Positions 2,238 to 45,188 of a stretch of 46,425 nucleotides of DNA are shown one piece after another; the first letter of the stretch is position 1, and every line of letters begins with the position of its first letter. The stretch comes from Deltaproteobacteria bacterium (GTDB taxonomy: Bacteria > Myxococcota_A > UBA796 > SXON01): NCBI GenBank assembly GCA_016875435.1, contig VGRE01000003.1:1-46425 (forward strand). Reading direction: 5' to 3'. Below the pieces are notes generated by a model. The model did not search any database. It was not told the origin of the DNA and saw nothing but the letters and a program-made list of their open reading frames with translations. Made by a program: the position numbers and the translations under genes.

Positions 2238-2969
2238 CTACTCGGCGTCCCGGCAGCACCGAAACCCGGTCGAGTAGTCATGGTAGCTCGTGTCGTGCGC
2301 CGAGGTGGTGTAGTCGCACCCGGCGCCGTTGATCACCGCGTCGGCGTAGAAGCCGCCCTTGAAAGTGCCGTTGGGAACGGCAATCCACTCGTGCAGGTTG
2401 CCGTGCAGGTCGTACACGCCCTCGGGCGTGACACAACCCTCGAACTCCCCCGTTTCTGACACCGTGCCGGGCTGCTGGTTGATGCCGGGATCGTTCATGT
2501 GCTCGGTGTCCCACACGCCGTCGCTGGTGCCGAAGTAGTCCACCACCGGGTGCGAGCCGCCGTAGGTGTCGTTGCAGGCGTAGAGGTCGTAGGTGTTCCC
2601 GTAGGGGTAGGTGCGCCCCTCGGTGCCCGCGCAGGCGAGCATCCACTCGTCAAGCGTACACAGGCGCTTGCCCGCCGCCTCGCAGGCCGCGCCCGCCACC
2701 TCGCCCGAGATGTAGGCCTGGGGAACCACGCCGCCCTCGGAGGTGGCGGTGCCGTCGCTCGGCACCTCGTAGGGGCTCCAGCCCTCGAGGGTGGCCTCCC
2801 AGCGGTCGACGCACAGCTCGCGCCCCACCTGCGCCATCTCGGGCGGGCACGGGCCCTCGGGGGCGGTGTCCGCGGTGTCGTCCACCTCGGCGCTGTCCCG
2901 CCGTCCCGGGCGGCTCTTGAGATCCTCGCCCGCGTCGGGCTCGACGCATGCGAGGAGGAGGAGCAACAT
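2238..2969 (-). CDS. Formylglycine-generating-enzyme/SUMF1-fold lipoprotein
   Basis: Start at 2969 overlaps the upstream stop (TGATG); MLLLLLAC leader; ACEAAGKRLCTLDEW..AC, YPYG, GVYDLHGNLHEW, GFRCC. Confidence 0.85.
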   Translation of the reverse strand: MLLLLLACVEPDAGEDLKSRPGRRDSAEVDDTADTAPEGPCPPEMAQVGRELCVDRWEATLEGWSPYEVPSDGTATSEGGVVPQAYISGEVAGAACEAAGKRLCTLDEWMLACAGTEGRTYPYGNTYDLYACNDTYGGSHPVVDYFGTSDGVWDTEHMNDPGINQQPGTVSETGEFEGCVTPEGVYDLHGNLHEWIAVPNGTFKGGFYADAVINGAGCDYTTSAHDTSYHDYSTGFRCCRDAE

Positions 2970-5167
2970 CACACCAGGAAATACCTCGGCGCCACCTCGA
3001 CCACTCGCGTGGTGGCCACGCCGCCCTTCTGCGCGATCACCGCGTGGGCCCCGTGGACCACGTCTTCCCAGGTGAGCACCACCGCCTCTTCCAGCGACAG
3101 GTTCTGCGCGATGCCCGGCACGTACTTCTGTCCCAGCGCCCGCGCCGGGAGACCGGGGAAGTGCTCGGTGCAGTCGCCCTCGATCTGGCGAACAAAGCCG
3201 CCAAAGGTACGATCTTCGGCTGCGACCAGCAACCGTCCGGTGCGACCGACACTCTGGTACACCAGTTCCATGTCCGGGGGGACGAGCGTGCGCAGGTCGA
3301 TGATCTCCAGCTCGATGCCCTCCGCCGCGAGCTTCTGCGCCGCCGCCATGCACGTCCACACCGCGCGACCCCAGGCCACCACGGTGACATCGCGCCCGGG
3401 ACGGCGGATCACGCCCTTGCCGAGCGGCACGGCCAACTCGGGGGAAATGTCGGGGATCTCGCCGCGCATGATCGACTTCTTCAGCGCAGTGATCGCCTCG
3501 GGATCGGTGGGCTCGCCGGGGAAGGCGGGGCCCAGGGCCTGGCGGTACATCCACTTCGGTTCCAGGCACACCACGGGGCCGCGGAAACGCGCGGCGCTCA
3601 TCAGCAGGCCGTACACGTCCCACGAGGTGGACGGCATGATGATCGTGAGCCCGGGGATGGGCGTGAAGTAGCCGTCGATGCTCATCGAGTGGTACACCGC
3701 GCCGCCGCCGAAGGGGTCGACCGGGGTGCGCATGATGGTGGCGAAGTTCGTGCGGCCGTTGGTGCACCAGTACAGGTTGCCCATGTGCACGAGCCAGTGG
3801 AAGGCGTTGAGCGTGTAGTCGCCGAACTGGATCTCGGGCAGCACCACCAGATCGTCGTGCAGGCCCGCGCCGCAGCCGGTGCCGAGGATCAGCGGCTCGT
3901 TCAGCGGCGCGTCGATGATCTTGTCGGGGAAGGCCTTCTTGAGGCCGGCGGTGGCGGTCATCACCCCGCCGAGGCGGCCCACGTCTTGCCCCCAGAGCAC
4001 CCCCCGGTGGTGGGCGATGATGTTCTTGATCGCGGCGCGGATGGCGCCGGCGTAGGTGATGTTCGTCTGCCCCGACGACGCCGGCTCGGCCACCACCGGG
4101 AAGGGCGCGCGGATGTGCTCGAACACGCTCTCCGGCGGCGGCTCGGGCTCGCCGCGCACCTGGTCGAGGATGCTGCGCACCTCCTCGTCTTGCCGCGCCA
4201 TCACGTTGCCAAGCTCGTGGTGGGCGAAGAAGTCGCGACCCTCGCCTTGCACGCGCTTGAGCACGTCGCGGTCTTCCAGCACGCCGCGCGCCACCAGCTC
4301 CTGCCCGAGCTTGATGATGGGGTCGGATTGCTTGAGGTCGTAGGTGACGTCGGCCGCCGAGCTATGGCCGTTGAACCTAGGTAAGCTGTGCACGTGCATG
4401 AACACCGGCTTGCCCGTTTCCACGATGAAGCGGGCCGCCCGGTAGGTCTTCTCGAACACGTCGTCGAAGTCGCGGCCGTCGGCGCTCACGAAGTGCATGC
4501 CGAAGCTCGCAGCGTACACGCCGAAGTCCTGAATGCCGCGGCCTTCTTCCGGGGTGGTGCTGATCGCCACCCGGTTATCGGTCACGAGCAACAACGTGGG
4601 TAGTTCCCAGACCGCCGCCGCGTTCATCGCGTCGTGCAGGTCGCCCTCGGCGCTGGTGCCGTCGCCGATGATCGCCATCGACAGGGAGCCCTCGACGCCC
4701 TTGACCTTGAAGCCCTTGGCGTAGCCGGCCGCCTTGCCGAGTTGCATGCCCACCGGAGACTGCACCGGGAGAATGCCGAACTCCCGCATGTCGAGGTGGT
4801 AGACCATCTGCCGGCCGCGGGACATCTTGTCGGTGTCCTTGCTGAACTGCTGCCGCAACAGGTCGAGGGTGAACTCGCGGTAGCCGGCGAGGCGCACCCA
4901 CATCGAGACGAGCGCCCCGGAGCGGTAGTGGGGGACGATCCCGAACTTGGCGCGGTCGCAGGCCTTGTGCAGCGCGAGCGCCGTCGCCACGCCATGCACC
5001 TCCTCGCCCGGCCCCCAGATGGCGAACTTCACCTCGCCGCGGCTCACGAGGCGCACGATGTGCTCCTCGGTGCTGCGGCTGCGGGTAGCCACCTCGTAGG
5101 CCAGCCGCAGATCCTCGGCGGAGGGGACGGGGGTGTCCGCGTAGGCGGGGATCTCGAGGACGGCCAT
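2969..5167 (-). CDS. Fused alpha/beta E1 component of a 2-oxoacid (probably branched-chain) dehydrogenase, TPP-dependent
   Basis: TPP motif GDGTSAEGD...DN, GHSS, beta-part GQDVG..GGV, PLNE, EIQFGDY, HSMS, IDLRTL.P. Confidence 0.9.
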   Translation of the reverse strand: MAVLEIPAYADTPVPSAEDLRLAYEVATRSRSTEEHIVRLVSRGEVKFAIWGPGEEVHGVATALALHKACDRAKFGIVPHYRSGALVSMWVRLAGYREFTLDLLRQQFSKDTDKMSRGRQMVYHLDMREFGILPVQSPVGMQLGKAAGYAKGFKVKGVEGSLSMAIIGDGTSAEGDLHDAMNAAAVWELPTLLLVTDNRVAISTTPEEGRGIQDFGVYAASFGMHFVSADGRDFDDVFEKTYRAARFIVETGKPVFMHVHSLPRFNGHSSAADVTYDLKQSDPIIKLGQELVARGVLEDRDVLKRVQGEGRDFFAHHELGNVMARQDEEVRSILDQVRGEPEPPPESVFEHIRAPFPVVAEPASSGQTNITYAGAIRAAIKNIIAHHRGVLWGQDVGRLGGVMTATAGLKKAFPDKIIDAPLNEPLILGTGCGAGLHDDLVVLPEIQFGDYTLNAFHWLVHMGNLYWCTNGRTNFATIMRTPVDPFGGGAVYHSMSIDGYFTPIPGLTIIMPSTSWDVYGLLMSAARFRGPVVCLEPKWMYRQALGPAFPGEPTDPEAITALKKSIMRGEIPDISPELAVPLGKGVIRRPGRDVTVVAWGRAVWTCMAAAQKLAAEGIELEIIDLRTLVPPDMELVYQSVGRTGRLLVAAEDRTFGGFVRQIEGDCTEHFPGLPARALGQKYVPGIAQNLSLEEAVVLTWEDVVHGAHAVIAQKGGVATTRVVEVAPRYFLV

Positions 5168-5352
5168 CCAGCGCTCCGGGAGGGGCAGGCGCTAACACCC
5201 CCTCAGGTACCGCGCGCCGCCTACAGAGGGAGAGCCGACCCGTTGAGAAGCCCGTGAACCTTGCCGATGCCGCCTCGCTCCTGAAGTACGCCGTGGACGG
5301 CTCGCCGATGGCGTCGCGACAGAAGGTAATGGCCCACGCGTACGCGGAGTAA

Positions 5353-8300
5353 CTACAGCCCCAGGACCACCGAGAACGACCCCACGCCGGTGATGGAGCT
5401 GCTCGACTGCTCGCTCATGTCGCAGCCGTAGACGAGGTCGAGCTTGCCGTCGCCGTCGGTGTCGCCGAGACGGCCACTGCGCCCGCAGGCATCGCCGGTC
5501 TCGCCGAGGAAGGCGGCGTCGTAGTCGTCGGCGCCGAAGTCGTGGGCCCCGGCGAGCGGACCGTAGACCACGTACACCGCACCTGCGCCCGGGCCGCCCT
5601 CGGCGGCCTCCGGGGTGCCCACCACGAGGTCGACGTAGCCATCGGTATCGAGGTCGCCAGCGTCGAGCATGTAGTCGCCCAGGCTGTCGGCGCCGGTGGC
5701 GCCCACCACCGAGAAGAGCGCGTCGGCGGTGGTGCTGTCCAGGTCGCTGTAGTTGAAGAGGTAGACCGCGCCCGCGTCGATGCTGCCGTCGTCGTCGCCC
5801 GGGGACCCGGCGAGCACGTCGGCGTAGCCGTCGTTGTCGGCGTCGCCTGCGTAACGGAGCGTCGTGCCGAGGCCATCGCCGGCCGTCTCGGCGGTCACCT
5901 TGTTGGCCGCGGCCGCCGTGATCGACAGGCCCAAGCCCACGGTGTCGCCGTACATCACGTAGAAGGCGCCCGCGTCGGTACCGCCGTCGTCGTCGCCCGG
6001 CGCGCCGAACCAGGCGTCGTCTGCTCCGTCGCCATCGACGTCGGCCCCACTGCCGCCCGCGAGCGCGTAGCCCATGTAGTCGTTGTTGCTCTCGCCGGTG
6101 ACGGTGAGGACGGTGGTCGAGCCCACGTCGATGGTCACGCGCCCCCGGTAGCTGCTCGTGCCGATGTTGGCGCTGATCAGGGCATTGGAACTGCTGGAGG
6201 ACTGGTAGCTGCCGCCGGAGCAAATGGCCTCGGGGTTCAGTGCGTTCGACGTGTAGCTGTAGCTGTCGTCGGCGTCGGTGCTCAAGCTAATGACGCCCGA
6301 GCTAATTGGGCCTTCGAGAAGGTAGAAGTACCGACTCCAGGACACGTAGCCGTGGACGGCTACCTCGTCGTCGCCGTCGCCGTCGTAGTCCTCGATGGGG
6401 ACGATCACCGCCCCGACGTACTGGGTGCCGCTGGGCGAGGTGCGCTGGGCGTAGAACTCGTCGTCGGACGACTGCTCCCCGGCGGTGAGGGGGCCGCTGA
6501 AGAAGTTGGCCGTGCCGCGGTCGCTGGCGTCCACGTCGTCGCCGGTGGCGCTCACCACCACGTCGTCGATGCCGTCGCCATCGAGGTCCATGCCGGTGGC
6601 CACGGCGTAGCCTAGGCGGTCGCCGGACTCGCTCGCGTAGAACACCGAGTCGGCGTCGCCGGTGGCGGCGTAGTCGCCGGACCAGGTGCAGCTCAGGTCG
6701 CTTCCGTCGCAGTCGTTGTCGATGCCGTCCTCGCACTCCTCGCGCTCGCCGGGGTTCACGGCCGCGTCGGTGTCGTCGCAGTCGTCGCCGGTGTCCACGT
6801 AGCCACTCGGCAGGTCGCAGCTCACGCTGCTGGCGGTGGCGTCGCCGTAGCCGTCCCCATCGGCGTCGAGGTACCAGGTCGACGCCCCGGAGGCGGAGCT
6901 GTCGGCGCTGTTGGCGAGGCCGTCGCAGTCCTCGTCGGCGCCCGCGGCATCGCAGATCTCGGTGGCCGCGGGGCTGATCGCGGCGCTGCTGTCGTTGCAG
7001 TCGGTGGCGTCGGCCACGTAGCCGCTCGGGATCGTGCACGCGCTGCGGGTGGTGGCGGTGGTGCCGTAGCCGTCGGCGTCGGCGTCGCGGTACCAGGTGG
7101 CCTCGCCGGTGGCGCCCGACTCGTCGGTGCTCCCGTCGCAGTCGTTGTCGTCGCCGTCGCAAGTCTCGGTGGCGGCGGGGTTGATGGCGGCGTCGGTGTC
7201 GTCGCAGTCGCCGCCGGTCGAGAGGTAGCCGCTGGGGGCACTGCACTCCACCTCGGCGGCGGTCGCGTCGCCGTGGCCGTCGCCGTCGTCATCGGGGTAC
7301 CAGGTGAGCGCGTCGGAAGCGTCCTCGTCGGTGCTGCCGTCGCAGTCGTCGTCCTCGCCGTTGCAGTCCTCCACGCCTGCGGGAGACACTTCGGCGTCGG
7401 TGTCGTCGCAGTCGCTGCTGTTGGTCACCGTGCCGCTCGGGCCCTCGCAGGCGCTGAGCAGGCTGGCGCCGTCGCCGTAGCCGTCGCCGTCGGCATCGGT
7501 GTACCAGTTCGAGGTGCCGGTGACCGATGGATCGTCGCCGTCGGCGAGGCCGTCGCAGTCCTCGTCGGTATCGCTGCTGTCGCACACCTCGGCGTCGGCG
7601 GGGCTGATCGCGGCGCTGCTGTCGTTGCAGTCGGTGGCGTCGGCCACGTAGCCGCTCGGGATCGTGCACGCGCTGCGGGTGGTGGCGGTGGTGCCGTAGC
7701 CGTCGGCGTCGGCGTCGCGGTACCAGGTGGTCTCGCCGGTGGCGCCCGACTCGTCGGTGCTCCCGTCGCAGTCGTTGTCGTCGCCGTCGCAAGTCTCGGT
7801 GGCGGCGGGGTTGATGGCGGCGTCGGTGTCGTCGCAGTCGCCGCTGTTGCTGACGTTGCCGCTGGTGACGTCGCAAGCCAGCATGGACACCGAAGCGTTG
7901 CCGTAGCCGTCGGCGTCGGCGTCGGCGTAGGAGCGCGACTTGCCAATGACGCTCGGGTCGCTGTCGTCGGCGAGCCCGTCGCAGTCTTCGTCCGTGTCGG
8001 CGCTGTCGCACACCTCCGTCTCCCCCGGGTTGACGTTGGCGTCGCCGTCGTCGCAGTCGCTGGCGCTCGTCGCGTAGCCGGCCACGTCGTCGCAAGCGAG
8101 CATCGTGCTCGACGCGTCGCCGTAGCTGTCGCCATCGGCGTCGCGGTAGAGCGTAGACATCGAGCCGCTGCTGGTCGAGCTGTCGTCGTCGTCGGCGAGA
8201 CCGTCGCAGTCCTCGTCGGTGTCGCGGCTGTCGCACAGCTCGGTGGCGCCAGGGTTCACGTCGTCGCGGCTGTCGTCGCAGTCGGTGTCGTCGCCCACGA

Positions 8301-10167
8301 AGCCGGACGGGGCCTCGCAGTCGAGGGTCGTCGAGCCGTCGTCGCCGTAGCCGTCGCCGTCGGCGTCGGTATACCAGGTGATCGCGTCGGTGGCGTCGGC
8401 CCCGTCGATGTCGCCTGAGCAGTCGTTATCGACGTCGTCGCACACCTCCTCGGCGGCTGGGTTGATCGCCGAGTCGCGGTCGTCGCACTCCTCGCAGGCG
8501 GCGTAGCCGTCGCTGTCGTTGTCGTCGAAGCCGCTGGATCCGTCGCAGTTGTAGTCGTTCGGGTCCGAGCAGTCGGACTCGCTGGCGCCAGGATGAAAAT
8601 CGCTGTCGGCGTCGTCGCAGTCGCCGTAGCGGTTGGCGTAGCCGCTCGGCTCGTCGCAGGCGTCGAGCGTGGCGGAAGTCTCGCCGTACCCGTCGTCGTC
8701 TGCGTCGCGATACCAGGTGCGCTGGCCGGTGACCGAGGCGTCGTCGTCGTCGGTGGCACCGTCGCAGTCGTCGTCGATGTCGTTGCACGACTCGGTGGCG
8801 GAGGGGTTCACCGCGTCGTCGGTGTCGTCGCAGTCGCCCCCGGTCGCCACGTGGCCGGCGGGAACGATGCAGTCGGTGGCGACGCTGGACTCGTCGCCGT
8901 AGCCGTCGCCGTCGTCGTCGGCGTAGCTGTCGAAGGCATCGACGGCGCTCTCGCCGTCGGTCGTGCCGTCGCAGTCGTTGTCGACGTCGTCGCACAGCTC
9001 CACCTGCCCGGGGTACACGCTCGCGTCGGTATCGTCGCAGTCCTCGCAGGCGGCGGCGCCGTCGCCGTCGACGTCGACGTAGCCGGTGCTCCCGTCGCAG
9101 TTGTAGTCGACGGGGTCGGTGCAGTCGTCCTCGAGCGCGGTGGGGTTCACATCCTTGTTGCTGTCGTCGCAGTCGCCGTCCTGGGCGACGTAGTCCGCAG
9201 GGGCGTCGCAAGCCACGGTCGAGGTGCTGGTGTCGCCGAAGAGGTCGCCGTCGCCGTCGTAGTACCAGGTCTTGGCGTCGGTCGCGTCGTCTTCGTCGAC
9301 CTGGCCGTCGCCGTCGTTGTCCTTGTTGTCGCACGTCTCGGTGTCGTAGCAGTCGGCCAGGCCGTCCTTGTCGCTGTCGAAGCCCTCGTCGGTCTCGCCG
9401 TCGCAGTTGTCGTCGACGTCGTTGCATGTCTCCGTGGCGCCGGGATTCACGGCGGCGTCGGCGTCGTCGCAGTCCTCGCCGCCGTCGATGGGGGCGAGGT
9501 AGCCGTCGCCGTCCTCGTCGCCGTCGACCACCTCGAAGGTGACGAGCTCGGTCGCGGTGGCTCCGTGGGTATCGGTGACGGTGACGGAAAGGTCGTGGGC
9601 GCCCGCCGAGGGCGTGATGAGGACGATCGCGTGGCCGTTGCTGTCGGGGCTCGCCGGCAAGTCCGCGCCCTCGGCGGCGCTCCCGCTCCACGCGAATGTA
9701 AGTCGCGACAGGTCATCTTCGTCGTCTTCGACGTCGAGCTCGACAGCGACGCTGTCGCCCACGATGTAGCGATCGCCGTCGAGCGGCGAGGAGAACTCGA
9801 TGCTCGGGGCCTCGTTGTCGACCACGGAAAACTCTGCGTCGTCGGAACCCACGTTCCCGGCCGGGTCGATGGCGGTGAGGCGCAGGTCGTGGTCCCCCAC
9901 CGGGAGGTCGGCCTGCGGCGTGAAGAAGACCGCGTTGCCTTCCCAGGTGCTCTCGCCGCTAAGGGTCTCGAGCCCGTTGAGGGTCCAGAAGATGTTCAGG
10001 TCGCCGGACGCGTCGTCGCCGTCGGACACCGTGCCCACGAAGCTCACCGTGGCCCCCTCCACGATGCTGCCGCCATCCTCTGGGGACGTGATGGTGACGG
10101 TGGGGCGGTAGTCCTCGACGCCGGTATCGGCCGCGTCGCAGGCGACCAGCAGTTGTGCGATCCACAT
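5353..10167 (-). CDS. Giant surface lipoprotein: Ig-like domains, about 14 MopE-like Cys/Asp putative metal-binding repeats, C-terminal FG-GAP/integrin-alpha-like propeller (1604 aa)
   Basis: ATG 10167 preceded by AAAGGTG gives MWIAQLLVAC; repeats DCDD.D..(V/I)NP.A.E.C...D.DCDG and WY.D.DGDGYG; GDLD.DG..DL.VG and GAVY motifs. Confidence 0.9.
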   Translation of the reverse strand: MWIAQLLVACDAADTGVEDYRPTVTITSPEDGGSIVEGATVSFVGTVSDGDDASGDLNIFWTLNGLETLSGESTWEGNAVFFTPQADLPVGDHDLRLTAIDPAGNVGSDDAEFSVVDNEAPSIEFSSPLDGDRYIVGDSVAVELDVEDDEDDLSRLTFAWSGSAAEGADLPASPDSNGHAIVLITPSAGAHDLSVTVTDTHGATATELVTFEVVDGDEDGDGYLAPIDGGEDCDDADAAVNPGATETCNDVDDNCDGETDEGFDSDKDGLADCYDTETCDNKDNDGDGQVDEDDATDAKTWYYDGDGDLFGDTSTSTVACDAPADYVAQDGDCDDSNKDVNPTALEDDCTDPVDYNCDGSTGYVDVDGDGAAACEDCDDTDASVYPGQVELCDDVDNDCDGTTDGESAVDAFDSYADDDGDGYGDESSVATDCIVPAGHVATGGDCDDTDDAVNPSATESCNDIDDDCDGATDDDDASVTGQRTWYRDADDDGYGETSATLDACDEPSGYANRYGDCDDADSDFHPGASESDCSDPNDYNCDGSSGFDDNDSDGYAACEECDDRDSAINPAAEEVCDDVDNDCSGDIDGADATDAITWYTDADGDGYGDDGSTTLDCEAPSGFVGDDTDCDDSRDDVNPGATELCDSRDTDEDCDGLADDDDSSTSSGSMSTLYRDADGDSYGDASSTMLACDDVAGYATSASDCDDGDANVNPGETEVCDSADTDEDCDGLADDSDPSVIGKSRSYADADADGYGNASVSMLACDVTSGNVSNSGDCDDTDAAINPAATETCDGDDNDCDGSTDESGATGETTWYRDADADGYGTTATTRSACTIPSGYVADATDCNDSSAAISPADAEVCDSSDTDEDCDGLADGDDPSVTGTSNWYTDADGDGYGDGASLLSACEGPSGTVTNSSDCDDTDAEVSPAGVEDCNGEDDDCDGSTDEDASDALTWYPDDDGDGHGDATAAEVECSAPSGYLSTGGDCDDTDAAINPAATETCDGDDNDCDGSTDESGATGEATWYRDADADGYGTTATTRSACTIPSGYVADATDCNDSSAAISPAATEICDAAGADEDCDGLANSADSSASGASTWYLDADGDGYGDATASSVSCDLPSGYVDTGDDCDDTDAAVNPGEREECEDGIDNDCDGSDLSCTWSGDYAATGDADSVFYASESGDRLGYAVATGMDLDGDGIDDVVVSATGDDVDASDRGTANFFSGPLTAGEQSSDDEFYAQRTSPSGTQYVGAVIVPIEDYDGDGDDEVAVHGYVSWSRYFYLLEGPISSGVISLSTDADDSYSYTSNALNPEAICSGGSYQSSSSSNALISANIGTSSYRGRVTIDVGSTTVLTVTGESNNDYMGYALAGGSGADVDGDGADDAWFGAPGDDDGGTDAGAFYVMYGDTVGLGLSITAAAANKVTAETAGDGLGTTLRYAGDADNDGYADVLAGSPGDDDGSIDAGAVYLFNYSDLDSTTADALFSVVGATGADSLGDYMLDAGDLDTDGYVDLVVGTPEAAEGGPGAGAVYVVYGPLAGAHDFGADDYDAAFLGETGDACGRSGRLGDTDGDGKLDLVYGCDMSEQSSSSITGVGSFSVVLGL
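6968..7844. repeat. Near-identical 247-bp direct duplication inside the giant lipoprotein gene (6968-7214 and 7598-7844)
   Basis: The copies are 630 bp apart and differ at one position (7101 c vs 7731 t). Confidence 0.9.
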
Positions 10168-10232
10168 CGTCCACACCTTTGGGGGGGGGATGACAGGATA
10201 CCGCAGACCGGCGGCGGTGGCTAAGTGCGCGC

Positions 10233-12716: not shown

Positions 12717-12726
12717 AGTGGTCGCC

Positions 12727-16169: not shown

Positions 16170-16217
16170 GGGGCAACCTTACCGCGTTCGCGGCGGTCCG
16201 GGTGCTACCCTGCCCCG
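16170..16217. promoter_or_regulatory. Back-to-back divergent leaderless-type promoters
   Basis: Minus strand: TAAGGT-6 nt-ATG(16169); plus strand: TGc-TACCCT-6 nt-GTG(16218). Confidence 0.6.
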
Positions 16218-18847: not shown

Positions 18848-18950
18848 GGGCTTTCCTGCGCGGGAAGGGAGGGTCGTCCCGGCGCGTGTCGAAATCAGCA
18901 CGGCGCGCGCGGGCGCGGCAAGGTATCCTGTCGGCCGTTCCGGAGGCGGC

Positions 18951-33312: not shown

Positions 33313-33394
33313 GGCGGGCCCACGCTAGCCCGTGGGCAGCGCCTCCGCTGGCGGGCCAAACACCCGGGGCCGCGGCCCGACGCGCCGGCGAGGA

Positions 33395-34753: not shown

Positions 34754-35960
34754 GACCAAACTCCCACCGGGCCACGGTGCCGCCGCCCGGACGATCCTCG
34801 TGTGTCAGTGTCCCGCCCTGCGCCTCGACGATGCGCTTGCAGATGGCGAGGCCGAGCCCGGTGCCCTCGTGGCGCCCGGTGACGAAGGGCTGGTAGAGCC
34901 TCGCGCGCACCCCGGGGGGAACGCCGGCCCCCCGGTCGGCGATGGTCACGGCGTCGCGCGCGAGCGCCACCTCCACGACGGCGCCGGTCGGCGAGGCTTG
35001 CACGGCGTTGATGAGCAGGTTGTCGAGCACCTGGCGCACGGCGGTGGGCGCGGCGAGGCGCGTGGCCGGCGTGGTGCCGGTGAGCTTCACGGTGATGTCG
35101 CGAGCATCGGCCACCATCGTCACCCGGTCGATGGCGGTCGACACCGCCTCGGCGAGGTCGATGGCCACGGGCAGCTCGCGGGCCGGTCGCGCGAAGCCGA
35201 GCAGCCCCTGCACCACGTTGCGCGCGTGCTCGGCCTCAACGCGGATGGGCGAGCCGGGCTCGGCGTTGCCGAGGATCACCGCGAGCGGGTTCATCAGCTC
35301 GTGGGCCACTGCCGAGGCCATCTCGCCGAGCGCGGCGAGGCGCTCGGTTTCCACGCGGCGTCGCTCCAGGCTGCGAACGATCTGGGTCGCGACCACGGCG
35401 GCCAGGGCCGCCCCCCCGACGGCCACCACCACCGCGCCCACCCAGGCCCGCGTCGACTCGCGCGTGGCGCGAGCGAGGGCCTCTTCCTGGCGGTGGCTGA
35501 GCGCGTGGAGCACGGTGGCGATGGCGTCGCCCGTGGCCTTGGCGTGCACCTCCGCCTGCGCATGGAGCGCCATGGCGGCGTCGCGGCTCATGGTGCCGGC
35601 GCGTGCCACCGGCACCACCGATTCGGCAAACCACCAGTTGCCGGCGGCGACCGCCTCCCGGATGGGCTCGATGTCGACGTCCTCGTCGCGCGCCGCCACC
35701 AGCGCCGCGTCGACCGAGGCCACCACCTCCACGTAGTGGTCGAGGTGACCGGGCCCGCCCTCGATGAAGGTGTGGGCCTGGTGCACGTAGGCCTCCTGCG
35801 CGGTGGTGGCGAGTGACAAGAGCGCCTCCCGTTGCAGGGCGATGCGCTGGTGCTCGCGGTTGGCCTCGGCCACGCGGCTCCAACTCAAGAAGCCGAGCCC
35901 GGTCCCCAGCGCTTGCAGCGCCACGAGGCCCGCGACGGCGAGCACCACGCCGCGCTTCAC
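34746..35960 (-). CDS. Sensor histidine kinase with His-rich periplasmic domain (CorS-like)
   Basis: GTG 35960 overlaps the oxidase stop; two TM helices; AHELMNPL, NLLINA, DRGAG, GTGLGL; sensor has YVHQAH, GHLDHY, LHAQAEVH. Confidence 0.9.
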   Translation of the reverse strand: MKRGVVLAVAGLVALQALGTGLGFLSWSRVAEANREHQRIALQREALLSLATTAQEAYVHQAHTFIEGGPGHLDHYVEVVASVDAALVAARDEDVDIEPIREAVAAGNWWFAESVVPVARAGTMSRDAAMALHAQAEVHAKATGDAIATVLHALSHRQEEALARATRESTRAWVGAVVVAVGGAALAAVVATQIVRSLERRRVETERLAALGEMASAVAHELMNPLAVILGNAEPGSPIRVEAEHARNVVQGLLGFARPARELPVAIDLAEAVSTAIDRVTMVADARDITVKLTGTTPATRLAAPTAVRQVLDNLLINAVQASPTGAVVEVALARDAVTIADRGAGVPPGVRARLYQPFVTGRHEGTGLGLAICKRIVEAQGGTLTHEDRPGGGTVARWEFGHG

Positions 35961-37411
35961 TCCTCGACCGTCATCAGCCCCGCCATGCCATCCTCGGCGT
36001 GCTCGAGGATGTGACAGTGGTACATCCACTCGCCGGGGTTGTCCAGGGGGCTGGCGAAGGAGAGCGTGCTCATCGGCGGCGCGTCCCACGTATCCTTCCA
36101 GGCGGGCGGGCCCTCCACGGGCACGCCGTCGATGGCGAGGAGCTGGAAGCGGTTGCCGTGGATGTGGAAGGGGTGGTGCATCTCCGAGTCGTTCTTCACC
36201 TCGAAGAGGGTGTCGACGTTGCCCTGCACCGTCACCATGGGCACGTCGGGCCAGGCCGCGCCGTCGATGGTCACCGTCCCGCCCATCATGTCCTCGTCGA
36301 GCACCCACTGGTGGCCGAAGGTGGTGGGCACGTTGTCCTCGAAGGCTGGGATGTCGGGGGTGGGTTGCACCCAGGGCGTGCCCTCCACCTCGCCCTCGCC
36401 ATAGGTCAGGTAGAACACTGGGTTCTCCTGCTCGCCCATCGGGTCGTACTCCACCATCGAGCTGTGCTCGTCGTCGTGGAGCTGAAACCGGTTGTTCAGA
36501 AACGCGTAGGACTGGCCGGGCTCGCCGGTGGCCTCGACCAGCACCATGTAGCGCTCGCCAGGCACCACCAGCAGGTGCTCGGCCACGTAGGGCTCGGCGA
36601 GGAAACCACTGTCCGCGCCCACCACGGTCATCGTGTGACCCTCGAGGCGCACGTCCCAGAAGCGGGCGTTGGAGCTGTTGACCAGTCGCAGCAGGATCGT
36701 CTGGCCTCGCGTCACCTCGTAGCTGCGCAGCGCCCGGCCGTTGGCCATCAAGACGTTGCCGAGGCGGCCCATGAGCTGCATCATGTCGGTGTCGGGCGGG
36801 GCGATCTGGCGGGTGTCGTCGTCGAGCAGCACGTCGTCGAGCACGATGGGCAGGTCGCAGTCGGCGCGGCCCTCGCTGGCCTCGCGGATGATCATCGTGC
36901 CGTAGAGGCCGCGCTCGAGGAGCGTGTCGCCCGACATGTGGGGGTGGTACCAGTAAAAACCCGCGTCGGGGGGAACGAACTCGTAGGTGAAGGACTCGCC
37001 GGGCTGGACCGGGTCCATCATCTGCATCACGCCGTCCATCTCCGGGGTGATGCGCAGCCCGTGCCAGTGGATGGTCATCTCGGTGTCGGTGTCGTTGGTG
37101 AAGTTGACGACCACGGTGTCGCCCGCGTTGGCCTCGATGAGCGGCCCGGGGACGGTTCCGTTGAAGGCGAGCCCCGTCTCGAGGAGGGTGCCGGTGCCCG
37201 GGTCCCAGGCGAAGTCGCTGGCCACGAGGTCGAGGGTGGCGGTGCCCGCGCCGGGGGTGCTCCCAGCGGTGTAGCCGCAGGCCTCGGGCGCGGCGGGGGT
37301 GATCCAGTCGGCCTCCGTGTCGGTGCCGGTGTCGGCGGTGTCGTCGAGGTTTGCGCCGGGGGAGGACGTGTCCCTGGTGTCTTCCACGCACGCGAGGAGG
37401 AGAATCAGCAT
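35957..37411 (-). CDS. Three-domain multicopper oxidase lipoprotein (CuoA/CueO-like)
   Basis: All four Cu motifs present: HWHG, WYHPH, HPFHIHG, YHCHILEH.EDGM; MLILLLAC leader. Confidence 0.95.
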   Translation of the reverse strand: MLILLLACVEDTRDTSSPGANLDDTADTGTDTEADWITPAAPEACGYTAGSTPGAGTATLDLVASDFAWDPGTGTLLETGLAFNGTVPGPLIEANAGDTVVVNFTNDTDTEMTIHWHGLRITPEMDGVMQMMDPVQPGESFTYEFVPPDAGFYWYHPHMSGDTLLERGLYGTMIIREASEGRADCDLPIVLDDVLLDDDTRQIAPPDTDMMQLMGRLGNVLMANGRALRSYEVTRGQTILLRLVNSSNARFWDVRLEGHTMTVVGADSGFLAEPYVAEHLLVVPGERYMVLVEATGEPGQSYAFLNNRFQLHDDEHSSMVEYDPMGEQENPVFYLTYGEGEVEGTPWVQPTPDIPAFEDNVPTTFGHQWVLDEDMMGGTVTIDGAAWPDVPMVTVQGNVDTLFEVKNDSEMHHPFHIHGNRFQLLAIDGVPVEGPPAWKDTWDAPPMSTLSFASPLDNPGEWMYHCHILEHAEDGMAGLMTVEE

Positions 37412-37458
37412 GGCGCGACCCTAGCCGACTGCCGCGTTCGCCGCGCGGCGCGGCAACT

Positions 37459-37495
37459 GTGACCGTGGTGGTCACGGCGTGGTGCGCCAGGTCAC
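37459..37495. promoter_or_regulatory. Candidate transcription-factor binding site(s) between the divergent oxidase and lipoprotein genes
   Basis: Perfect GTGACC-N5-GGTCAC at 37459-37475 and a degenerate copy GTGGTG-N5-GGTCAC 20 bp further on. Confidence 0.45.
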
Positions 37496-37546
37496 CGATG
37501 CGGGCGGCGCGGGCGCCGTGTAGAGCGGGCCGCTCCGGAGTTTTCC

Positions 37547-37960
37547 ATGCGTCTCGTCGTCTTCTTCCTCTTGGCCTGCTTCACTGGCGACACCACGGCC
37601 TCCGCCGACACCGCGGGCGGCACCGATACTGGCAACACCGCCGACAGCGGCGACACCAACGACACCGAGCCCACCTGCGCCACGGTGGAATCGGGCGACA
37701 ACTGGGCCTGGGGCGGCGAGTGTCCCCAGATGGTGACACCCTGCGACATCGTCGTGACCGAATGTGCGCTCGCCATCGACTACGACGCCGACGGCGGCAT
37801 GACGATGGGGATGCCGTTCTCGGGCACCATCGAGGGCGACACCGTGACCTTTGCCAACGACAACGGGGTGGACGACTGCGTGGGCACGGTCATCGCGGCC
37901 GACGAGATCGAAGGGAGCTGCAAGGGCGGTTGCACCTTCACGCTCGAGCGGGGCCGTTAA
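37547..37960 (+). CDS. Small Cys/Met-containing hypothetical lipoprotein
   Basis: GGAG SD; MRLVVFFLLAC; DT-rich tether; mature part with several Cys and GGMTMGM. Confidence 0.8.
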   Translation: MRLVVFFLLACFTGDTTASADTAGGTDTGNTADSGDTNDTEPTCATVESGDNWAWGGECPQMVTPCDIVVTECALAIDYDADGGMTMGMPFSGTIEGDTVTFANDNGVDDCVGTVIAADEIEGSCKGGCTFTLERGR

Positions 37961-41183: not shown

Positions 41184-41843
41184 CTACTTGGGCTTGCCGA
41201 TCACGATGCCGAGGCCCACTTGCAGGAAGACGCCGCTGCCATCCACCCCCACGCTGTCCGAGACGCCGTCGGCGGAGCCCGCCCCGAACAGCGGGCGAAC
41301 TAGCGCTAGCTCGGGGATGAGCCGGACCGAGCCGCCCACGTGCGCCGAGTAGCCTGCCGATGCCCCGAGGCTCCAGATGGCGGCCGAGGCGCTGGATCCC
41401 GCCGCACCGGCGTTGAAACTCCACACGTGGACCTTGGGCCCGAGCACCACCTGGTTCTCGCCCATGCGCAGGCCAAACAGCACCGGGACGTGTAGCGCGA
41501 GGATCGACACGCTCGCGTCGGCGGCGCCGATGGCCATGCCGCCCACGGCCGGGGCGATCGAGATGGGCACGTTCGCGTCGCGCTCGGTGAGGCCAAACTT
41601 GCCGGATAGCTCGATGCCGCTGGAGCCCACGCGCCCGCCGATGTCGACACGATCGCTGAGTCCCACCCGCGCCGACACGCCGGCGTGGGGGTACAGCAAG
41701 GTGGCGCTCTCGCCGCTACCCCCCCACATCGAGGGCTCGATGCCCACTTCCCAGTTGCCCTTCCCGAGCGTCTCGGCGTTCTGGAAGGTGCCGAAAGTGG
41801 CGCAGCCGGTGAGGAGGGGAAACGCGGCGAGAAGTCGATGCAC
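41184..41843 (-). CDS. Hypothetical lipidated outer-membrane beta-barrel-like protein
   Basis: GTG 41843 after GGAG; LLTGC lipobox; Q.AETLGKG..E.G; alternating amphipathic strands ending FLQVGLGIVIG. Confidence 0.75.
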   Translation of the reverse strand: MHRLLAAFPLLTGCATFGTFQNAETLGKGNWEVGIEPSMWGGSGESATLLYPHAGVSARVGLSDRVDIGGRVGSSGIELSGKFGLTERDANVPISIAPAVGGMAIGAADASVSILALHVPVLFGLRMGENQVVLGPKVHVWSFNAGAAGSSASAAIWSLGASAGYSAHVGGSVRLIPELALVRPLFGAGSADGVSDSVGVDGSGVFLQVGLGIVIGKPK

Positions 41844-41877: not shown

Positions 41878-42070
41878 TGGCTCATCGGCCTCTGCCCTCC
41901 CCGGCGGCGTCATCTTCGTCTGCGGGACGGGCAAGCTCGCTCTCTCGCCGGGGATCAAGCCGCTGGTGGTCGGCATCACCGTGGTGGCCTTCTGCGCGCC
42001 GGCGCCCGAGGTGGCGGCCTCGGTCACCACCGCCCTCAACGGCAGCCCGGCGCTGGCGGTGGGCAGCGGG
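41878..42070 (+). pseudogene. Decayed N-terminal fragment of a YrbG-type Ca2+/Na+ antiporter
   Basis: Translates as ..FVCGTGKLALSPGIKPLVVGITVVAFCAPAPEVAASVTTALNGSPALAVGS, close to the alpha-1 repeat consensus GA..LA...GI..LVVGLTVVAFGTS.PE..VS..AAL.G..D.AVGN; GTS motif is degraded and the fragment is truncated. Confidence 0.6.
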
Positions 42071-42115
42071 CTATGGACCCGTGAAGTCAACCCCTGCCCG
42101 TGGCATCATTGGATC

Positions 42116-43981
42116 GTGCTCCTCCTCGCCCTGGCGTGTGCGCCCGCCGAGACATCCCCCTGCGCCTACGGCTTCGAGGTCGACGAGGTGGGCAAGTGCG
42201 TGCCACCGGACGGCGAAAACATCGATGACACCGATGACACCGATGACACCGATGACACCGATGACACCGATGACACCGATGACACCGATGACACCGGCAC
42301 TTGGCGCTCGCTCCCCGCCGGGTGCGCCGTCCCGTCGGCGCTCGCGACCGATCCCATCGTCTTGACCGACGAGTTGGTCCCCGGCGAGCAGGGTGGTAGC
42401 TACGAGATGTTGGACATCGAGCTGGCCGACGGCGTGGCCTACGCCGTGGGAGAGGGCGGGCTGCTGGTGCTCGATCCCACCCCGGGCGCGGCGCGGGTGC
42501 TGGGCGCCGGCGTGGGATCGAGGTTTCACCGGGTGGAGCCGCTCGGCCAGGGCCTGGTGGCGTTGACCCACCGCGAGGTGGGGCTCGTCCTGGTCGACGC
42601 GAGCGATCCCGCCGCCCTGTCGCAGGTGGCCAGTCTCGCGGTCGCCGGCATGGAGGGCATGGCGGCGGTCGAAGGCTACCTCTACGCGAGCGTGCACGAC
42701 CACGGCGTGTACGTGCTCGACGTGTCCGATCCGACGCGACCGGTGAAGGTGGGCGGGAGCATGGGCCTGTCCGCGGCCTGGGAGCTGAGCAAGCCGCGGG
42801 AGGGCTGGATCTACGCTGCCGACAACGCGCTCGGCGTGGTGCCGATCGACGTCTCCGACCCGCTGTTCCCGCTCGTCGGCACCCCGGTCGATCTCGGCGC
42901 GGCCGTGCTCCACGTCAGCATCGACGGCGACCACCTCTACGCGTCCACCGGGGGCTTCGGCGTGGTGGTGCTCGACCTGGCCGACCCCGCCGCGCCGCTG
43001 CCGGTGGCGACCCTGCCAACCGGCGGCTCGGCGGTGATGGCCGACGCCGACGAGGGGCTCCTGGTCGCCGCCGACCACGACGGGATCGCCGCCTGGGACG
43101 TGTCCGACCCCGCCGCGCCCGTGCCGCTCGGCCGGGAGGCAACCCCGCAGGTCGCGCTCGGCGTGGCGCTTGGCAGCGACGTGGCCTGGGTGACGGACTG
43201 GACGGCGATCGAGGGCTGGGCCATCGACCGGGCGGCGGTGGCGCCCGAGTTGTCGCTGTCGTCATCGGAGGTGCTGGTTCCCATCGAGGGCGGGAGCGTG
43301 GAGCTGAGGGTGACCAACCACGGTTCGGCGGCGCTGTCCCTGCTCGGGGCCCTGAGCAGCGACGCGCGCCTGGCGATCGCGGCGAGCACCGACTCGCTGG
43401 CCCCCGGCGAGGAGGGGCTGCTCCGCCTGTCCTTCGCGGGCGACGGCGACGAGCTCGACGCCAGCGTGTGCCTTGTAAGCGACGACCCGGACGACCCGGT
43501 GCAGACGATCATGGTCGGCACCAGCAATGGCGACCCCTACATCGGCCTCGCCGCGCCGGACTTCGAACTGCCGGGGATCGACGGCAACACCTATCGTCTC
43601 TCCGACCAGCTTGGGCACCCGGTGATGCTGGCCTTCTTCGCCACCTGGTGCTCCGTCTGCCCGTCCGAGGTCTCGGACATCGACCAGAGTATCTACCAGG
43701 CCTACAAGGACGCCGGCGTGGTGGTGTGGGCCATCGCGAGCGGGGATACCGACATCGAAAGCGTGGTGCGGTTTGCCGAGGGCTTCGAGTTGACCCTGCC
43801 CGTGCTCTACGACGAGGGCGGGCGCGTGCAAGCGGACTACGTGACGCAGCCTGAGGTGGGAGCCGCCACCCACCACGGGGAGTGGATCATCGGCGCCGAC
43901 GGCGTGATCGTGTACCACGCCGCCGACTACGACCACGACGCCGTGGTGGACGTGATCGAGGCGCAGTTGGGTGGGCAGTGA
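42116..43981 (+). CDS. Lipoprotein: LVIVD-repeat propeller, ASH/Ig domain, C-terminal TlpA/redoxin domain
   Basis: GTG 42116 gives MLLLALAC; repeated G(L/V).V.DVSDP..P; SDDPD; APDF.L, FFATWCSVC. Confidence 0.85.
   Translation: MLLLALACAPAETSPCAYGFEVDEVGKCVPPDGENIDDTDDTDDTDDTDDTDDTDDTDDTGTWRSLPAGCAVPSALATDPIVLTDELVPGEQGGSYEMLDIELADGVAYAVGEGGLLVLDPTPGAARVLGAGVGSRFHRVEPLGQGLVALTHREVGLVLVDASDPAALSQVASLAVAGMEGMAAVEGYLYASVHDHGVYVLDVSDPTRPVKVGGSMGLSAAWELSKPREGWIYAADNALGVVPIDVSDPLFPLVGTPVDLGAAVLHVSIDGDHLYASTGGFGVVVLDLADPAAPLPVATLPTGGSAVMADADEGLLVAADHDGIAAWDVSDPAAPVPLGREATPQVALGVALGSDVAWVTDWTAIEGWAIDRAAVAPELSLSSSEVLVPIEGGSVELRVTNHGSAALSLLGALSSDARLAIAASTDSLAPGEEGLLRLSFAGDGDELDASVCLVSDDPDDPVQTIMVGTSNGDPYIGLAAPDFELPGIDGNTYRLSDQLGHPVMLAFFATWCSVCPSEVSDIDQSIYQAYKDAGVVVWAIASGDTDIESVVRFAEGFELTLPVLYDEGGRVQADYVTQPEVGAATHHGEWIIGADGVIVYHAADYDHDAVVDVIEAQLGGQ
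42224..42295 (+). repeat. Perfect 9-bp coding microsatellite (GATGACACC)x8 encoding (DDT)8
   Basis: Eight exact tandem copies read directly from the sequence. Confidence 0.97.
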
Positions 43982-44040: not shown

Positions 44041-44084
44041 CGGCTAGTTGCCCGGTAGGGTGGTACCGGTTTTTCGAGGTGCCG

Positions 44085-45188
44085 ATGCTTTTTCTTGTCG
44101 TCTTCGCCTGTACGCCCGAGACAGTCGAAGAAACGGAGAAAGAAGGGGCGACGTTGCCCACCACCGCCCTCGGCACCGGCGAGGGGGAACTCGACCCCGA
44201 GTCGGTGGACTACACCTACATCCTCGGCGACGAGGAGCAGCTCTCCGACCCGCGCGATCTCGGCTTCGACCCCGACGGCAACTTGTGGATCGCCAATCGG
44301 GACGATGACTGCACCTTCATCGTGTTCGACGCCGGGGAAGAGAACCAGTCCTACTACCGCCAGAAAGACTTCGCCGCCGAGCACTTCATGGAGGAGACGT
44401 CGGCCTTCGCCTTCGAGACCGCCGAGGGCCAGGACGGCGACCACGGCTACGAGTTCGGCTCCTGCGGCGAGTCGCGCAACACCTACAACGGCCGGCGGCG
44501 ACCCGACAACTTCATGGGCCCGGTGTTGTGGTCGGCGCAGATCGACATCTTCGCCGAGGAGAATCCCAACGGCCTCGGCAGCCACCTCGACATGCTGCAC
44601 CAGAGCCCCAACTGCGTGGGCCTGGCCTGGGAGCGCAACAACGTGTACTGGGTGTTCGACGGCCTGGCGGGCAACGTGGTGCGCTACGACTTCCAGGACG
44701 ACCACGACGTGGGCCAGGACGATCACAGCGACGGCCTGGTCTACCGCCTCAGCGAGCCCACCGTCACCCGGGTGGAAGAGGCCCCGGGCCACATGATGAT
44801 CGACCCGGCCACCGGGATTCTCTACGTGGCCGACACCGGCGGCGGGCGGGTGCTGGCGCTCGACACCCAGAGTGGAGAACGCGGCAAGGAACTGCGCGCG
44901 CGGAACGAGCCGCTCGAGGACTACGCCGAGTGGGACGGTGTCGAGTGGCAGGAGCTGGTCACCGGCCTCTCCGAGCCCGGCGGCCTCGCGCTCGGCAACG
45001 GCGTGCTCTACGTGGCCGAGTGGGGCACCGGCATCATCCGGGCCTTCGATCTCGGGGGCAACCGCGTCCAGGCGCTCGACACCGGCGCCGGCGCCGGGGC
45101 GATCTACGGGATCGAGATCGGTCCCGACGGGGCGCTCTGGGTGGTCGACAACGCGGCGCCGGGGGTTTTCAGGGTGGATCCGATTTGA
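44085..45188 (+). CDS. Acidic beta-propeller lipoprotein (NHL/SMP-30-like repeats)
   Basis: GAGGT SD then MLFLVVFAC; PRDLGFDPDGNLWIAN, LYVADTGGGRV, LYVAEWGTG, IGPDGALWVVD; HLDMLH motif. Confidence 0.82.
   Translation: MLFLVVFACTPETVEETEKEGATLPTTALGTGEGELDPESVDYTYILGDEEQLSDPRDLGFDPDGNLWIANRDDDCTFIVFDAGEENQSYYRQKDFAAEHFMEETSAFAFETAEGQDGDHGYEFGSCGESRNTYNGRRRPDNFMGPVLWSAQIDIFAEENPNGLGSHLDMLHQSPNCVGLAWERNNVYWVFDGLAGNVVRYDFQDDHDVGQDDHSDGLVYRLSEPTVTRVEEAPGHMMIDPATGILYVADTGGGRVLALDTQSGERGKELRARNEPLEDYAEWDGVEWQELVTGLSEPGGLALGNGVLYVAEWGTGIIRAFDLGGNRVQALDTGAGAGAIYGIEIGPDGALWVVDNAAPGVFRVDPI

Follow-up and report, generated by a model that had tools for sequence, protein, structure and literature searches.

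Uncharged leaders of about half the textbook length as putative minimal export signals in a lake-water Myxococcota genome

Introduction

Bacterial signal peptides are described by a basic n-region and a hydrophobic core of approximately 7-15 residues, and these rules underlie secretome prediction as well as much of secretion engineering. Lipoprotein leaders usually comprise roughly 15-25 residues, and the PROSITE rule PS51257 places the Cys at residues 15-35 and calls for a Lys or Arg within the first seven. In Escherichia coli, prl alleles of secY and secE allow the export of proteins with defective signals. The present work deals with a 46,425-base window, that is, the whole stretch of DNA that was analyzed, which corresponds to an entire contig (C3) of a Myxococcota genome bin (G000). 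Among its 37 called genes, 13 start with an exported-type leader of at most 14 residues, such as MLLLLLAC or MWLFLAC. Judged from their genes, this uncultured organism and part of its order appear to possess hundreds of exported, probably lipid-anchored proteins with uncharged signals of 7-12 residues, about half the textbook length. In the literature that was searched, no description of such leaders was found.

The source DNA was found in lake-water metagenomes, and the bin comprises 4.78 Mb in 544 contigs at 70.7% GC. Genes were called with a codon-usage caller trained on G000 itself (4021 genes). An unambiguous set of 1778 genes, built so that no start has to be chosen, was restricted to those in which, counting from the preceding stop, the earliest codon able to serve as a start is at most 12 codons away from the coding onset. 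Comparison genomes were represented by samples of 200 kb each, and the relatives used for alignments of start regions were the same-genus genomes G011, G009, G008, and G001. Genomes are called trait-rich or trait-poor according to a single DNA pattern, ATG(NTN)5GCNTGY, which is described below.

Composition of the short leaders

A genome-wide peak in the position of the first Cys, proposed as a check in the first-pass annotation of the window, is indeed present. Among the 3358 genes with a start call, 503 have their first Cys at residues 7-12 (78, 101, 114, 78, 74, and 58 genes at the successive positions), whereas residues 25-60 average ~18 genes per position. Among the unambiguous genes, the lipobox Cys is most often found at residue 8, with 23, 54, 43, and 32 genes at residues 7, 8, 9, and 10, respectively. 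The 311 lipobox N-termini fall into a short class of 152 (Cys at residue 10 or earlier), a mid class of 69 (residues 11-14), and a long class of 90 (residue 15 or later). Thus, 152 of the 311 depart from the expectation of a long h-region with a Cys near residues 15-35, and the short class may be under-counted, because several 'long' leaders hold an internal Met followed by a short leader.

A published lipobox consensus has an invariant Cys at +1, preceded by [GAS] at -1, [ASTVI] at -2, and [LV] at -3 (PMC8048626). The short leaders resemble canonical signals of the signal peptidase II (SPase II) class, of the E. coli Lpp type, in their invariant Cys, in their small -1 residue (152 of 152, with Ala in 126, Gly in 23, and Ser in 3), and in the Leu found at -3 in 119 of 152. 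They also share with them a disordered acidic tether after the Cys, genes for Lgt, LspA, Lnt, and LolA are present in G000, and orthologues of normal leader length align at the Cys. They differ from canonical signals in three respects. The basic n-region is absent from 151 of the 152, which contain neither Lys nor Arg, as is also the case for all eight window leaders with a Cys at or before residue 10; the whole leader measures only 6-9 residues; and Leu, which the consensus [ASTVI] does not include, predominates at -2 (105 of 152). The PS51257 rule would reject such leaders. The residues LIVFMW make up 71% of their composition and Ala 21%, and 133 of the 152 have L, I, F, W, V, or M as their second residue.

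Leaders without a Cys are shortened as well. A further 131 of the 1778 N-termini are hydrophobic from residue 2 and have no Cys. A filter for short A-x-A leaders (uncharged, at most 14 residues, a small -1 residue, then a polar acidic stretch) was passed by 87 of the 1778, with a modal length of 10-12, examples being MLLLATLAHA|DD, MLALAALALA|SE, and MFLVALALA|QD. Position -1 is occupied by Ala in 66, Gly in 15, and Ser in 6 of these and position -3 by Ala in 49, of which only the preference for Ala at -1 is informative, because the filter demanded a small residue there. The set includes a few late-Cys lipoproteins and false matches, e.g., a DnaK-like protein; once uncertain matches are considered, about 70-87 genes have A-x-A leaders of 9-14 residues, of the signal peptidase I (SPase I) type. 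Like tripartite Sec signals cleaved by SPase I, these leaders combine a hydrophobic core, small residues at -3 and -1, and a polar mature start, and two S26 peptidase genes are found in G000; unlike them, they are devoid of an n-region and total only 9-14 residues. That SPase I-type leaders are equally shortened implies that the trait is not specific to lipoproteins, which places it at the Sec step and not at Lgt or Lsp.

Authenticity of the short starts

All ten frames for which short starts had been claimed, denoted here by the coordinates of their start codons, were read back to the preceding stop. In four of them, 37411 (-), 16169 (-), 37547 (+), and 33312 (-), this interval contains no in-frame ATG, GTG, or TTG, and the stop lies 3, 3, 28, and 4 codons upstream, respectively. 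The open frames upstream of 2969, 10167, 42116, and 44085 do hold possible starts. The onset of coding, as estimated from codon usage, falls within seven codons of the claimed start in nine of the ten genes, the exception being 42116. Across G000, an in-frame stop precedes the start by 0-5 codons in 71 of the 152 genes with short leaders, and by exactly 3 codons in 41 of them.

Homologue alignments, which had also been proposed as a check, reveal no conserved upstream extension. In the same-genus genomes, homology with synonymous changes sets in at the claimed start codon, and the hydrophobic leader and the Cys are retained, while the upstream sequence has undergone indels that are not multiples of three, of 4 nt at 10167, 7 nt at 44085, and 19+1 nt at 33312. 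Lake-water contigs from other studies cover the region 37276-37654, which holds both divergent starts (37411 and 37547); they differ from the window at 0 (X2, X3) or 5 (X4) bases, and the listed differences include no indel near either start.

These data bear on the possibility that the short starts are an artefact of annotation. Long upstream open frames are common at 70% GC, more than 15 open codons precede 54 of the 152 short-leader genes, and an unusual start codon does occur in one window gene, 17998, all of which leaves room for longer proteins. Against this stand the stops within five codons in 71 of the 152 genes, coding potential that begins at the short start, the frame-breaking indels of close relatives, and the agreement of independent assemblies. 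All ten claimed short starts are confirmed, as far as sequence can tell, by in-frame stops, coding onset, and the alignments of relatives, and the earlier description of these leaders as real, uncharged, and extremely short holds.

Distribution across the phylum

When 200-kb samples were compared on their unambiguous genes, a lipobox Cys at residue 10 or earlier was found in 13 of 25 lipobox N-termini of G219, 7 of 14 of G000, 1 of 8 of G019, 0 of 7 of G153, and 0 of 3 of G017. N-termini that are uncharged and hydrophobic over residues 2-7 number 23 of 84 in G219, 13 of 107 in G000, 5 of 67 in G019, 0 of 72 in G153, and 2 of 63 in G017. G219 and G019 both belong to family f2 of the same order as G000, G017 belongs to family f6, and G153 to another class. 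Control genomes thus yield normal Cys positions through an identical pipeline, which also argues against an annotation artefact.

The pattern ATG(NTN)5GCNTGY, which reads Met, five hydrophobic residues, Ala, and Cys, was counted in 301 genomes of the phylum; it covers a single leader length and so marks the trait without measuring it. There are 29 matches in G000 and 9-34 in the genomes of its own family. Counts in family f2 range from 1 (G019, G126) up to 42 (G116), 56 (G258), and 90 (G219). In the order as a whole, 11 of 44 genomes have at least nine matches, the maximum being 90; outside it, the maxima are two in 14 genomes of the class's other orders and four in 243 genomes of other classes. 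With the pattern reversed, there are 0-2 matches per genome and none in G000. Only part of one order shows the trait.

Of the 29 matches in G000, 17 have no possible upstream start. That the matches represent internal Met residues of longer signals was considered and rejected for this genome, as none of the 29 has a signal-like upstream translation; the upstream translations resemble non-coding GC-rich sequence, a further point against starts located upstream.

Proteins headed by short leaders

According to Pfam, the window proteins with short leaders comprise a multicopper oxidase, MopE/FG-GAP/PKD and HYDIN-Ig giants, a Wzi-like barrel, and FGE-sulfatase, LVIVD+redoxin, NHL, and FAD_binding_2 proteins, and four have no Pfam match. 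Elsewhere in G000, 122 short-leader proteins have a length of 150-650 residues, and a random sample of 60 of these was examined. Among the matches listed for them (25 of 68 families) are sulfatase, type I phosphodiesterase, CotH, arylsulfotransferase (ASST), SNase, lamin-tail, OmpA, YceG/MltG, PNGase F, and multicopper oxidase. On the strength of these domains, short leaders head extracytoplasmic protein types, in agreement with the first-pass annotation.

Leader length is variable among homologues. The 120 best homologues of the window's multicopper oxidase, filed under 'Myxococcota bacterium' and called by other pipelines, have leaders of 6 to ~25 residues; 30 of the 120 have short uncharged leaders, and many have MR followed by ~10 residues. 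Orthologues from the same family differ in leader length from 7 to 22 residues, and those with ordinary lipoprotein leaders of 15-25 residues align with the short ones at the Cys. Because length forms a continuum, the short leaders look like shortened ordinary lipoprotein signals whose length evolves readily.

Two of the window proteins, the flavoprotein encoded at 12727-14274 (+) and the oxidase encoded at 35957-37411 (-), have Sec-type lipoprotein leaders without a twin-arginine motif. As MWLFLAC and MLILLLAC contain no Arg at all, they are not Tat signals. The cofactors of both proteins would need to be loaded outside the cytoplasm.

Proposed mechanism

From the N-termini, their genome-wide and lineage distribution, the kinds of protein that they head, and the inventory of the export machinery, we infer how export, lipidation, and cleavage might proceed and how the missing charge might be made good. 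In many exported proteins, the basic n-region would have been lost and the hydrophobic core reduced to 4-7 residues. What would remain of a lipoprotein signal is Met, four to six residues drawn from L, I, F, W, and V, then Leu, Ala or Gly, and a Cys at residue 7-10; what would remain of an SPase I signal is Met, 6-9 hydrophobic residues, and A-x-A. Both types would be exported by the single standard SecYEG/SecA, or with the signal recognition particle (SRP). The Cys type would then be processed by Lgt, LspA, and Lnt and the A-x-A type by SPase I, and the Lol system would sort the resulting lipoproteins.

Three features may assist such leaders. The first is the N-terminal Met, which would be retained, with its amino group free after deformylation, and which often stands beside Trp or Phe. 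Under the methionine-aminopeptidase rule, a bulky residue 2 leads to retention of the Met; it should accordingly be kept here, since residue 2 is bulky in 133 of the 152 short leaders, and two deformylase genes are present. That this Met stands in for the n-region is plausible. The second is the very high hydrophobicity of the leader, often with Trp or Phe at residue 2. The third is the early mature region, which is acidic, disordered, and rich in Pro, Thr, and Gly, and which might be pulled outward by the membrane potential; over the 20 residues that follow the Cys, the net charge is -3.25 for short leaders and +0.11 for other N-termini.

It is fairly probable that the short leaders are genuine minimal Sec-type signals handled by the standard machinery. 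Lsp has been reported to cleave a synthetic diacylglyceryl lipopeptide in a fluorescence resonance energy transfer assay, and Lgt to act on a synthetic 24-residue Lpp peptide (PMC8048626). These assays fit recognition centred on the lipobox and are no proof for short leaders.

A number of points weigh against handling by the standard machinery. A hydrophobic core of 4-7 residues would be too short to span the bilayer as a helix. According to a review of Sec signals that summarizes work on E. coli and other hosts, transport is slowed markedly when the n-region has a zero or negative charge, and the h-region requires a minimal length and hydrophobic density (PMC5875014). As far as these statements go, the standard machinery is not expected to take such leaders efficiently. 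The mature start offers no specific compensation, for long-leader lipoproteins are also acidic there (-2.46); an acidic start is permissive and not specific to short leaders. Classical signals with a basic n-region have been kept in G000, e.g., by TolB (MTKRTAILLGATSLTIGVFAWPGEAQ) and BamD (MFRRLALACAVMLAVASPIVAQA). Leaderless-type promoters, whose overall share is 5.4% in G019, 5.4% in G153, 5.9% in G219, and 7.1% in G000, provide no explanation of the trait. Finally, gene calls and signal classes were obtained with our own caller and regular expressions, in place of a validated predictor, from a bin with a completeness of 90.5% and a contamination of 4.35%.

A broader proposal, which we make tentatively and hold to be of limited probability, is that, in part of one Myxococcota order, Sec targeting has been relaxed throughout the lineage by a change in membrane properties, by tuning of SecYEG/SecA/SRP, or by an extra factor. 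Met plus five or six uncharged hydrophobic residues would then be enough for proteins of up to 1600 residues to be targeted, translocated, lipidated, and cleaved. If true, it would redefine the minimal bacterial signal peptide, and roughly a tenth of the proteome would be exported in this manner and probably be missed by current predictors. About 9% of the reliably started genes (152 of 1778) appear to rely on uncharged lipoprotein leaders of 6-9 residues and ~4-5% more on A-x-A leaders of 9-14 residues. Working leaders of 6-9 residues would give a new lower bound for the Sec signal, and the occurrence of trait-rich and trait-poor genera within one family offers a comparative system for what sets that bound. 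The surface and lipoprotein inventories of these abundant freshwater Myxococcota are probably badly under-called by standard annotation, and the leaders are candidate very short tags for secretion and lipidation.

Export and lipidation machinery

A different explanation is that dedicated or retuned machinery, i.e., a modified Sec, Lgt, or Lsp, an altered membrane, or an unknown factor, accepts leaders of 7-10 residues devoid of an n-region that the standard machinery would not. The restriction of the trait to part of one order and the breach of textbook requirements by the short leaders both speak in its favor. It corresponds to the inference of the first-pass annotation, which named a Sec/Lgt/Lsp variant or a separate targeting pathway. 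A separate pathway or divergent paralogues are not supported: SecY, SecA, and Ffh are each encoded once in G000, no divergent paralogue of them was found, and classical and short signals coexist in this genome, with leader lengths that form a continuum. The remainder of the inventory consists of the two S26 signal peptidases, two deformylases, one LspA (beside an Lgt, on contig C199), four Lgt, one Lnt above the cut-off, and one LolA.

A single SecY was found in each of the 24 genomes of the order with a SecY match, and the search gave no match in two incomplete genomes of the order. When 22 SecY sequences were aligned, trait-rich and trait-poor genomes differed consistently at nine columns, as retuning of the channel might have it, but the sets follow phylogeny, and at the three columns mapped to E. 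coli the trait-rich state is E. coli-like or, at one of them, a similar small residue. Of the six pore-ring positions, five hardly vary among the 22 (with one I/V exchange), and at the sixth (E. coli I187) both groups have Ser or Ala; neither the pore ring nor the plug separates trait-rich from trait-poor genomes in these 22 sequences. In genus g1 only, SecY has an Ala at the equivalent of E. coli F286 (L011, on contig C56 of G000, residue 284), where the others have Phe or Ile. E. coli F286 is one of the two prlA4 sites. This Ala does not track the trait, being absent from the trait-rich G012, G253, G219, G258, and G116. The lineage thus resembles E. coli prl suppressors in that it appears to export, naturally, signals that would be 'defective' in E. 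coli, and it differs from them in that no prl-like change of SecY tracks the trait. On the basis of these columns, SecY was rejected as the cause.

Similar considerations apply to lipidation. Most bacteria have a single copy of Lgt. The four Lgt loci of G000 lie at C199:3488-4768 and on C2, C57, and C154; one of them adjoins lspA, and relatives are likewise multi-copy. Together with the two LspA matches found in 8 of 11 same-genus genomes, this multiplicity could be taken in favor of dedicated machinery. However, each of the 21 genomes searched within the order has 2-6 Lgt copies, the trait-poor ones having at least three, and LspA has two matches in the trait-poor G017 and one in the trait-rich G012. 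Neither copy number is associated with the trait, and both were rejected as its cause. A lineage-specific adaptation is a serious rival, given the requirements put forward in PMC5875014, even if dedicated or retuned machinery is, on the whole, unlikely.

Like TolB and BamD, LolA of G000 probably carries a classical signal. The BamD homologues of the order (L018-L036) seem to have SPase I-type signals, e.g., MFRRLALACAVMLAVASPIVAQA, with no lipobox at the cleavage site, and BamD may perhaps not be a lipoprotein in this order.

Alternative explanations

The short N-termini might also be uncleaved anchors or make use of another envelope route, such as a YidC-assisted hairpin with the leader kept, or non-Sec secretion. 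The hydrophobic stretch is, in principle, too short for a normal transmembrane signal, and the early mature region is acidic; acidic segments favor a mode of insertion in which the membrane potential and YidC drive short segments into the membrane. However, the processing motifs are exact at the end of the leader, with the A/G/S rule at -1 obeyed in 152 of 152 before an invariant Cys and Ala at -1 in 66 of the 87 A-x-A leaders, orthologues of ordinary length align at the Cys, and the cargo reaches 1604 residues, a size that requires the Sec channel, so that such routes appear quite improbable. An artefact of annotation, in which the real starts would lie upstream (at usual or unusual codons, or through read-through, frameshift, or misassembly) and give normal signal peptides, is very improbable indeed in view of the stops, indels, assemblies, and controls presented above.

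Leaderless-type promoters

In leaderless mRNAs, a TANNNT -10 box directly precedes the start codon. Such mRNAs have been described in Actinobacteria and Deinococcus (PMC3898074, PMC4007540, PMC6028130). Upstream of 171 forced starts of G000, there is an excess of T at -12 and -7, of A at -11, and of G at -14, and the TAnnnT box peaks at a 6-nt spacer across all genes, as in those organisms. A stop-codon artefact behind this signal was considered and rejected, because the non-stop hexamers TA[CT]nnT also peak at spacer 6 (54, over a background of ~6) and the final T matters. Unlike in Actinobacteria and Deinococcus, the box of G000 is enriched on short-signal genes: in the unambiguous set, TAnnnT occurs 5-8 nt upstream of 23% of short and 22% of mid leaders, of 4% of long leaders, and of 7% of other genes. 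About a quarter of the short-leader genes are probably translated from leaderless mRNAs. Leaderless promoters were rejected as the cause of the trait, since trait-poor samples show a similar share; these promoters accompany the trait without explaining it.

Within the window, a box 5-9 nt upstream in the absence of a Shine-Dalgarno (SD) sequence was found at 37411, 16169, and 33312, where box and spacing are conserved in relatives with diverged flanks, and not at 42116, 10167, 44085, 37547, or 18951, which have SD-like sequences. SD-like or translationally coupled short-leader genes are those at 2969, 10167, 17998, 18951, 37547, and 44085. The start signals named in the first-pass annotation were recovered in part: the stop/start overlap at 2969, SD-like sequences at 10167, 44085, and 37547, and the boxes at 37411 and 16169 are there, whereas a TAnnnT box looked for before 42116 was not found, and the TAG of the box-like hexamer at 12727 is a stop codon.

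Short-leader genes of the window

The gene at 2238-2969 (-) codes for an FGE-sulfatase-domain protein with the leader MLLLLLAC (Cys at residue 8). Its ATG shares 1 nt with the TGA of the upstream E1-dehydrogenase-like gene, and the leader reads MLLLLLAC in G011 and MLFLLLAC in G009, with synonymous changes. The gene at 5353-10167 (-) encodes a surface-type protein of 1604 residues with MopE, FG-GAP, PKD, and Big_7 domains and the leader MWIAQLLVAC (Cys at residue 10). Just upstream lies a variable homopolymer, a nine-C run at 10178-10189 (-) located between a promoter-like box and the start; G009 and G011 have a 4-nt indel here, which rules out an in-frame extension. The 11-mer GGTATCCTGTC, which contains a TATCCT -10-like box, is found at 10190-10200 (-) and at 18923-18933 (+) and precedes both MopE/FG-GAP giant genes, 10167 and 18951.

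The latter, at 18951-21158 (+), encodes a MopE/FG-GAP/HYDIN-Ig protein of 735 residues with the uncharged leader MVLSITLSLAMMAC (Cys at residue 14), which is absent from the first-pass annotation; its GTG start has no in-frame start upstream and is preceded by GGAGG at 4 nt. Two more leaders are likewise new. A HYDIN/ASH Ig-like protein of 522 residues, encoded at 27297-28865 (-), is predicted to start with MLALVALGC (Cys at residue 9), although a start 40 codons further upstream is possible, and a protein of 219 residues without a Pfam match, encoded at 41184-41843 (-), has the candidate leader MHRLLAAFPLLTGC (Cys at residue 14).

The FAD_binding_2 flavoprotein encoded at 12727-14274 (+) carries MWLFLAC (Cys at residue 7) ahead of an acidic linker of D, E, T, G, and P, and this leader is identical in G000, G011, and G009. 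The sole upstream in-frame candidates are GTG and TTG codons that would add at most three residues, the GTG lying 3 codons up. A -10-like TAGAGT at 12714-12719 (+) is found 7 nt before the ATG; a leaderless reading is ambiguous here, because its TAG is the stop codon of the gene at 11547-12716.

At 15741-16169 (-), a protein of 142 residues without a Pfam match has the leader MRALVLATLVAC, with one Arg and the Cys at residue 12; the leader of the G008 orthologue is MRALVFLSLLAC. The TAAGGT box of a leaderless-type promoter, at 16176-16181 (-), lies 6 nt before the ATG and reads TAAGCT at equal spacing in G008, where the flanks have diverged. Two radical-SAM genes follow in tandem at 16218-17267 (with a SPASM domain) and 17264-18001 (+), and after them the gene for a 178-residue protein at 17998-18534 (+), so that 16218-18534 may form a maturase-substrate or translationally coupled module. 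The leader (M)TLLLGC claimed for the 178-residue protein is supported by a GGAGG 7 nt upstream, by the overlap with the stop of the upstream radical-SAM gene, and by the alternative downstream ATG at 18019, which reads ATC in G008, but its start codon has to be a CTG, or an ATT at 17995; the 104 open codons upstream contain no ATG, GTG, or TTG.

The Wzi-like outer-membrane protein (Pfam Caps_assemb_Wzi) encoded at 31879-33312 (-) represents the SPase I type, with a GTG start and the 10-residue leader MLLVPLALAA|DPE. Relatives have VLLAALALAA|DPE (G011), VWFTTLALAA|DPE (G009), and MLLLAALAAA|SPDDE (G003, a forced start). A TAGCGT -10-like box at 33322-33327 (-), 9 nt before the GTG, is kept in G011 and G009 beside the 19-nt indel.

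The three-domain multicopper oxidase encoded at 35957-37411 (-) has the leader MLILLLAC (Cys at residue 8), identical in G000, G011, and G009. The TAGGGT box of a leaderless-type promoter at 37418-37423 (-), 6 nt before the ATG, is kept with its spacing in G011 and G009, whose sequences have diverged further upstream. The oxidase gene is the first of an operon at 33395-37423 (-) that continues with genes for a histidine kinase (34746-35960) and for a sigma-54 response regulator (33395-34759), the junctions overlapping at 35957-35960 and 34746-34759 and the TAGGGT box standing in front; this may be a copper-responsive unit. A related strain from another lake sample (contig from run X5), ~97% identical, has a 6-nt in-frame insertion at 37316, in the acidic linker of the oxidase; the linkers evolve via indels.

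Divergently from the oxidase gene, that at 37547-37960 (+) encodes a protein of 137 residues without a Pfam match, with the leader MRLVVFFLLAC (Cys at residue 11) and GGAG 8 nt upstream. Through in-frame indels, this leader measures 11, 12, and 15 residues in G000, G011, and G009, respectively. At 44085-45188 (+), an NHL/SGL beta-propeller protein starts with MLFLVVFAC (Cys at residue 9), preceded by GAGG at 6 nt; the corresponding leaders are MLFALVLAC in G009, after the 7-nt upstream indel, and MFLSLALAC in G001, after GGAGG.

The gene at 42116-43981 (+) encodes an LVIVD-repeat and AhpC/redoxin protein with a GTG start and the leader MLLLALAC (Cys at residue 8). The onset estimated from codon usage, 41894, disagrees with this start; G011 retains the GTG and the leader, and an in-frame GTG 19 codons upstream is not conserved in that genome. 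The 55 nt before the GTG, at 42061-42115 (+), show ~5 differences to G011, and the sequences are unrelated further upstream. These 55 nt may represent a regulatory element or a conserved 5' leader.

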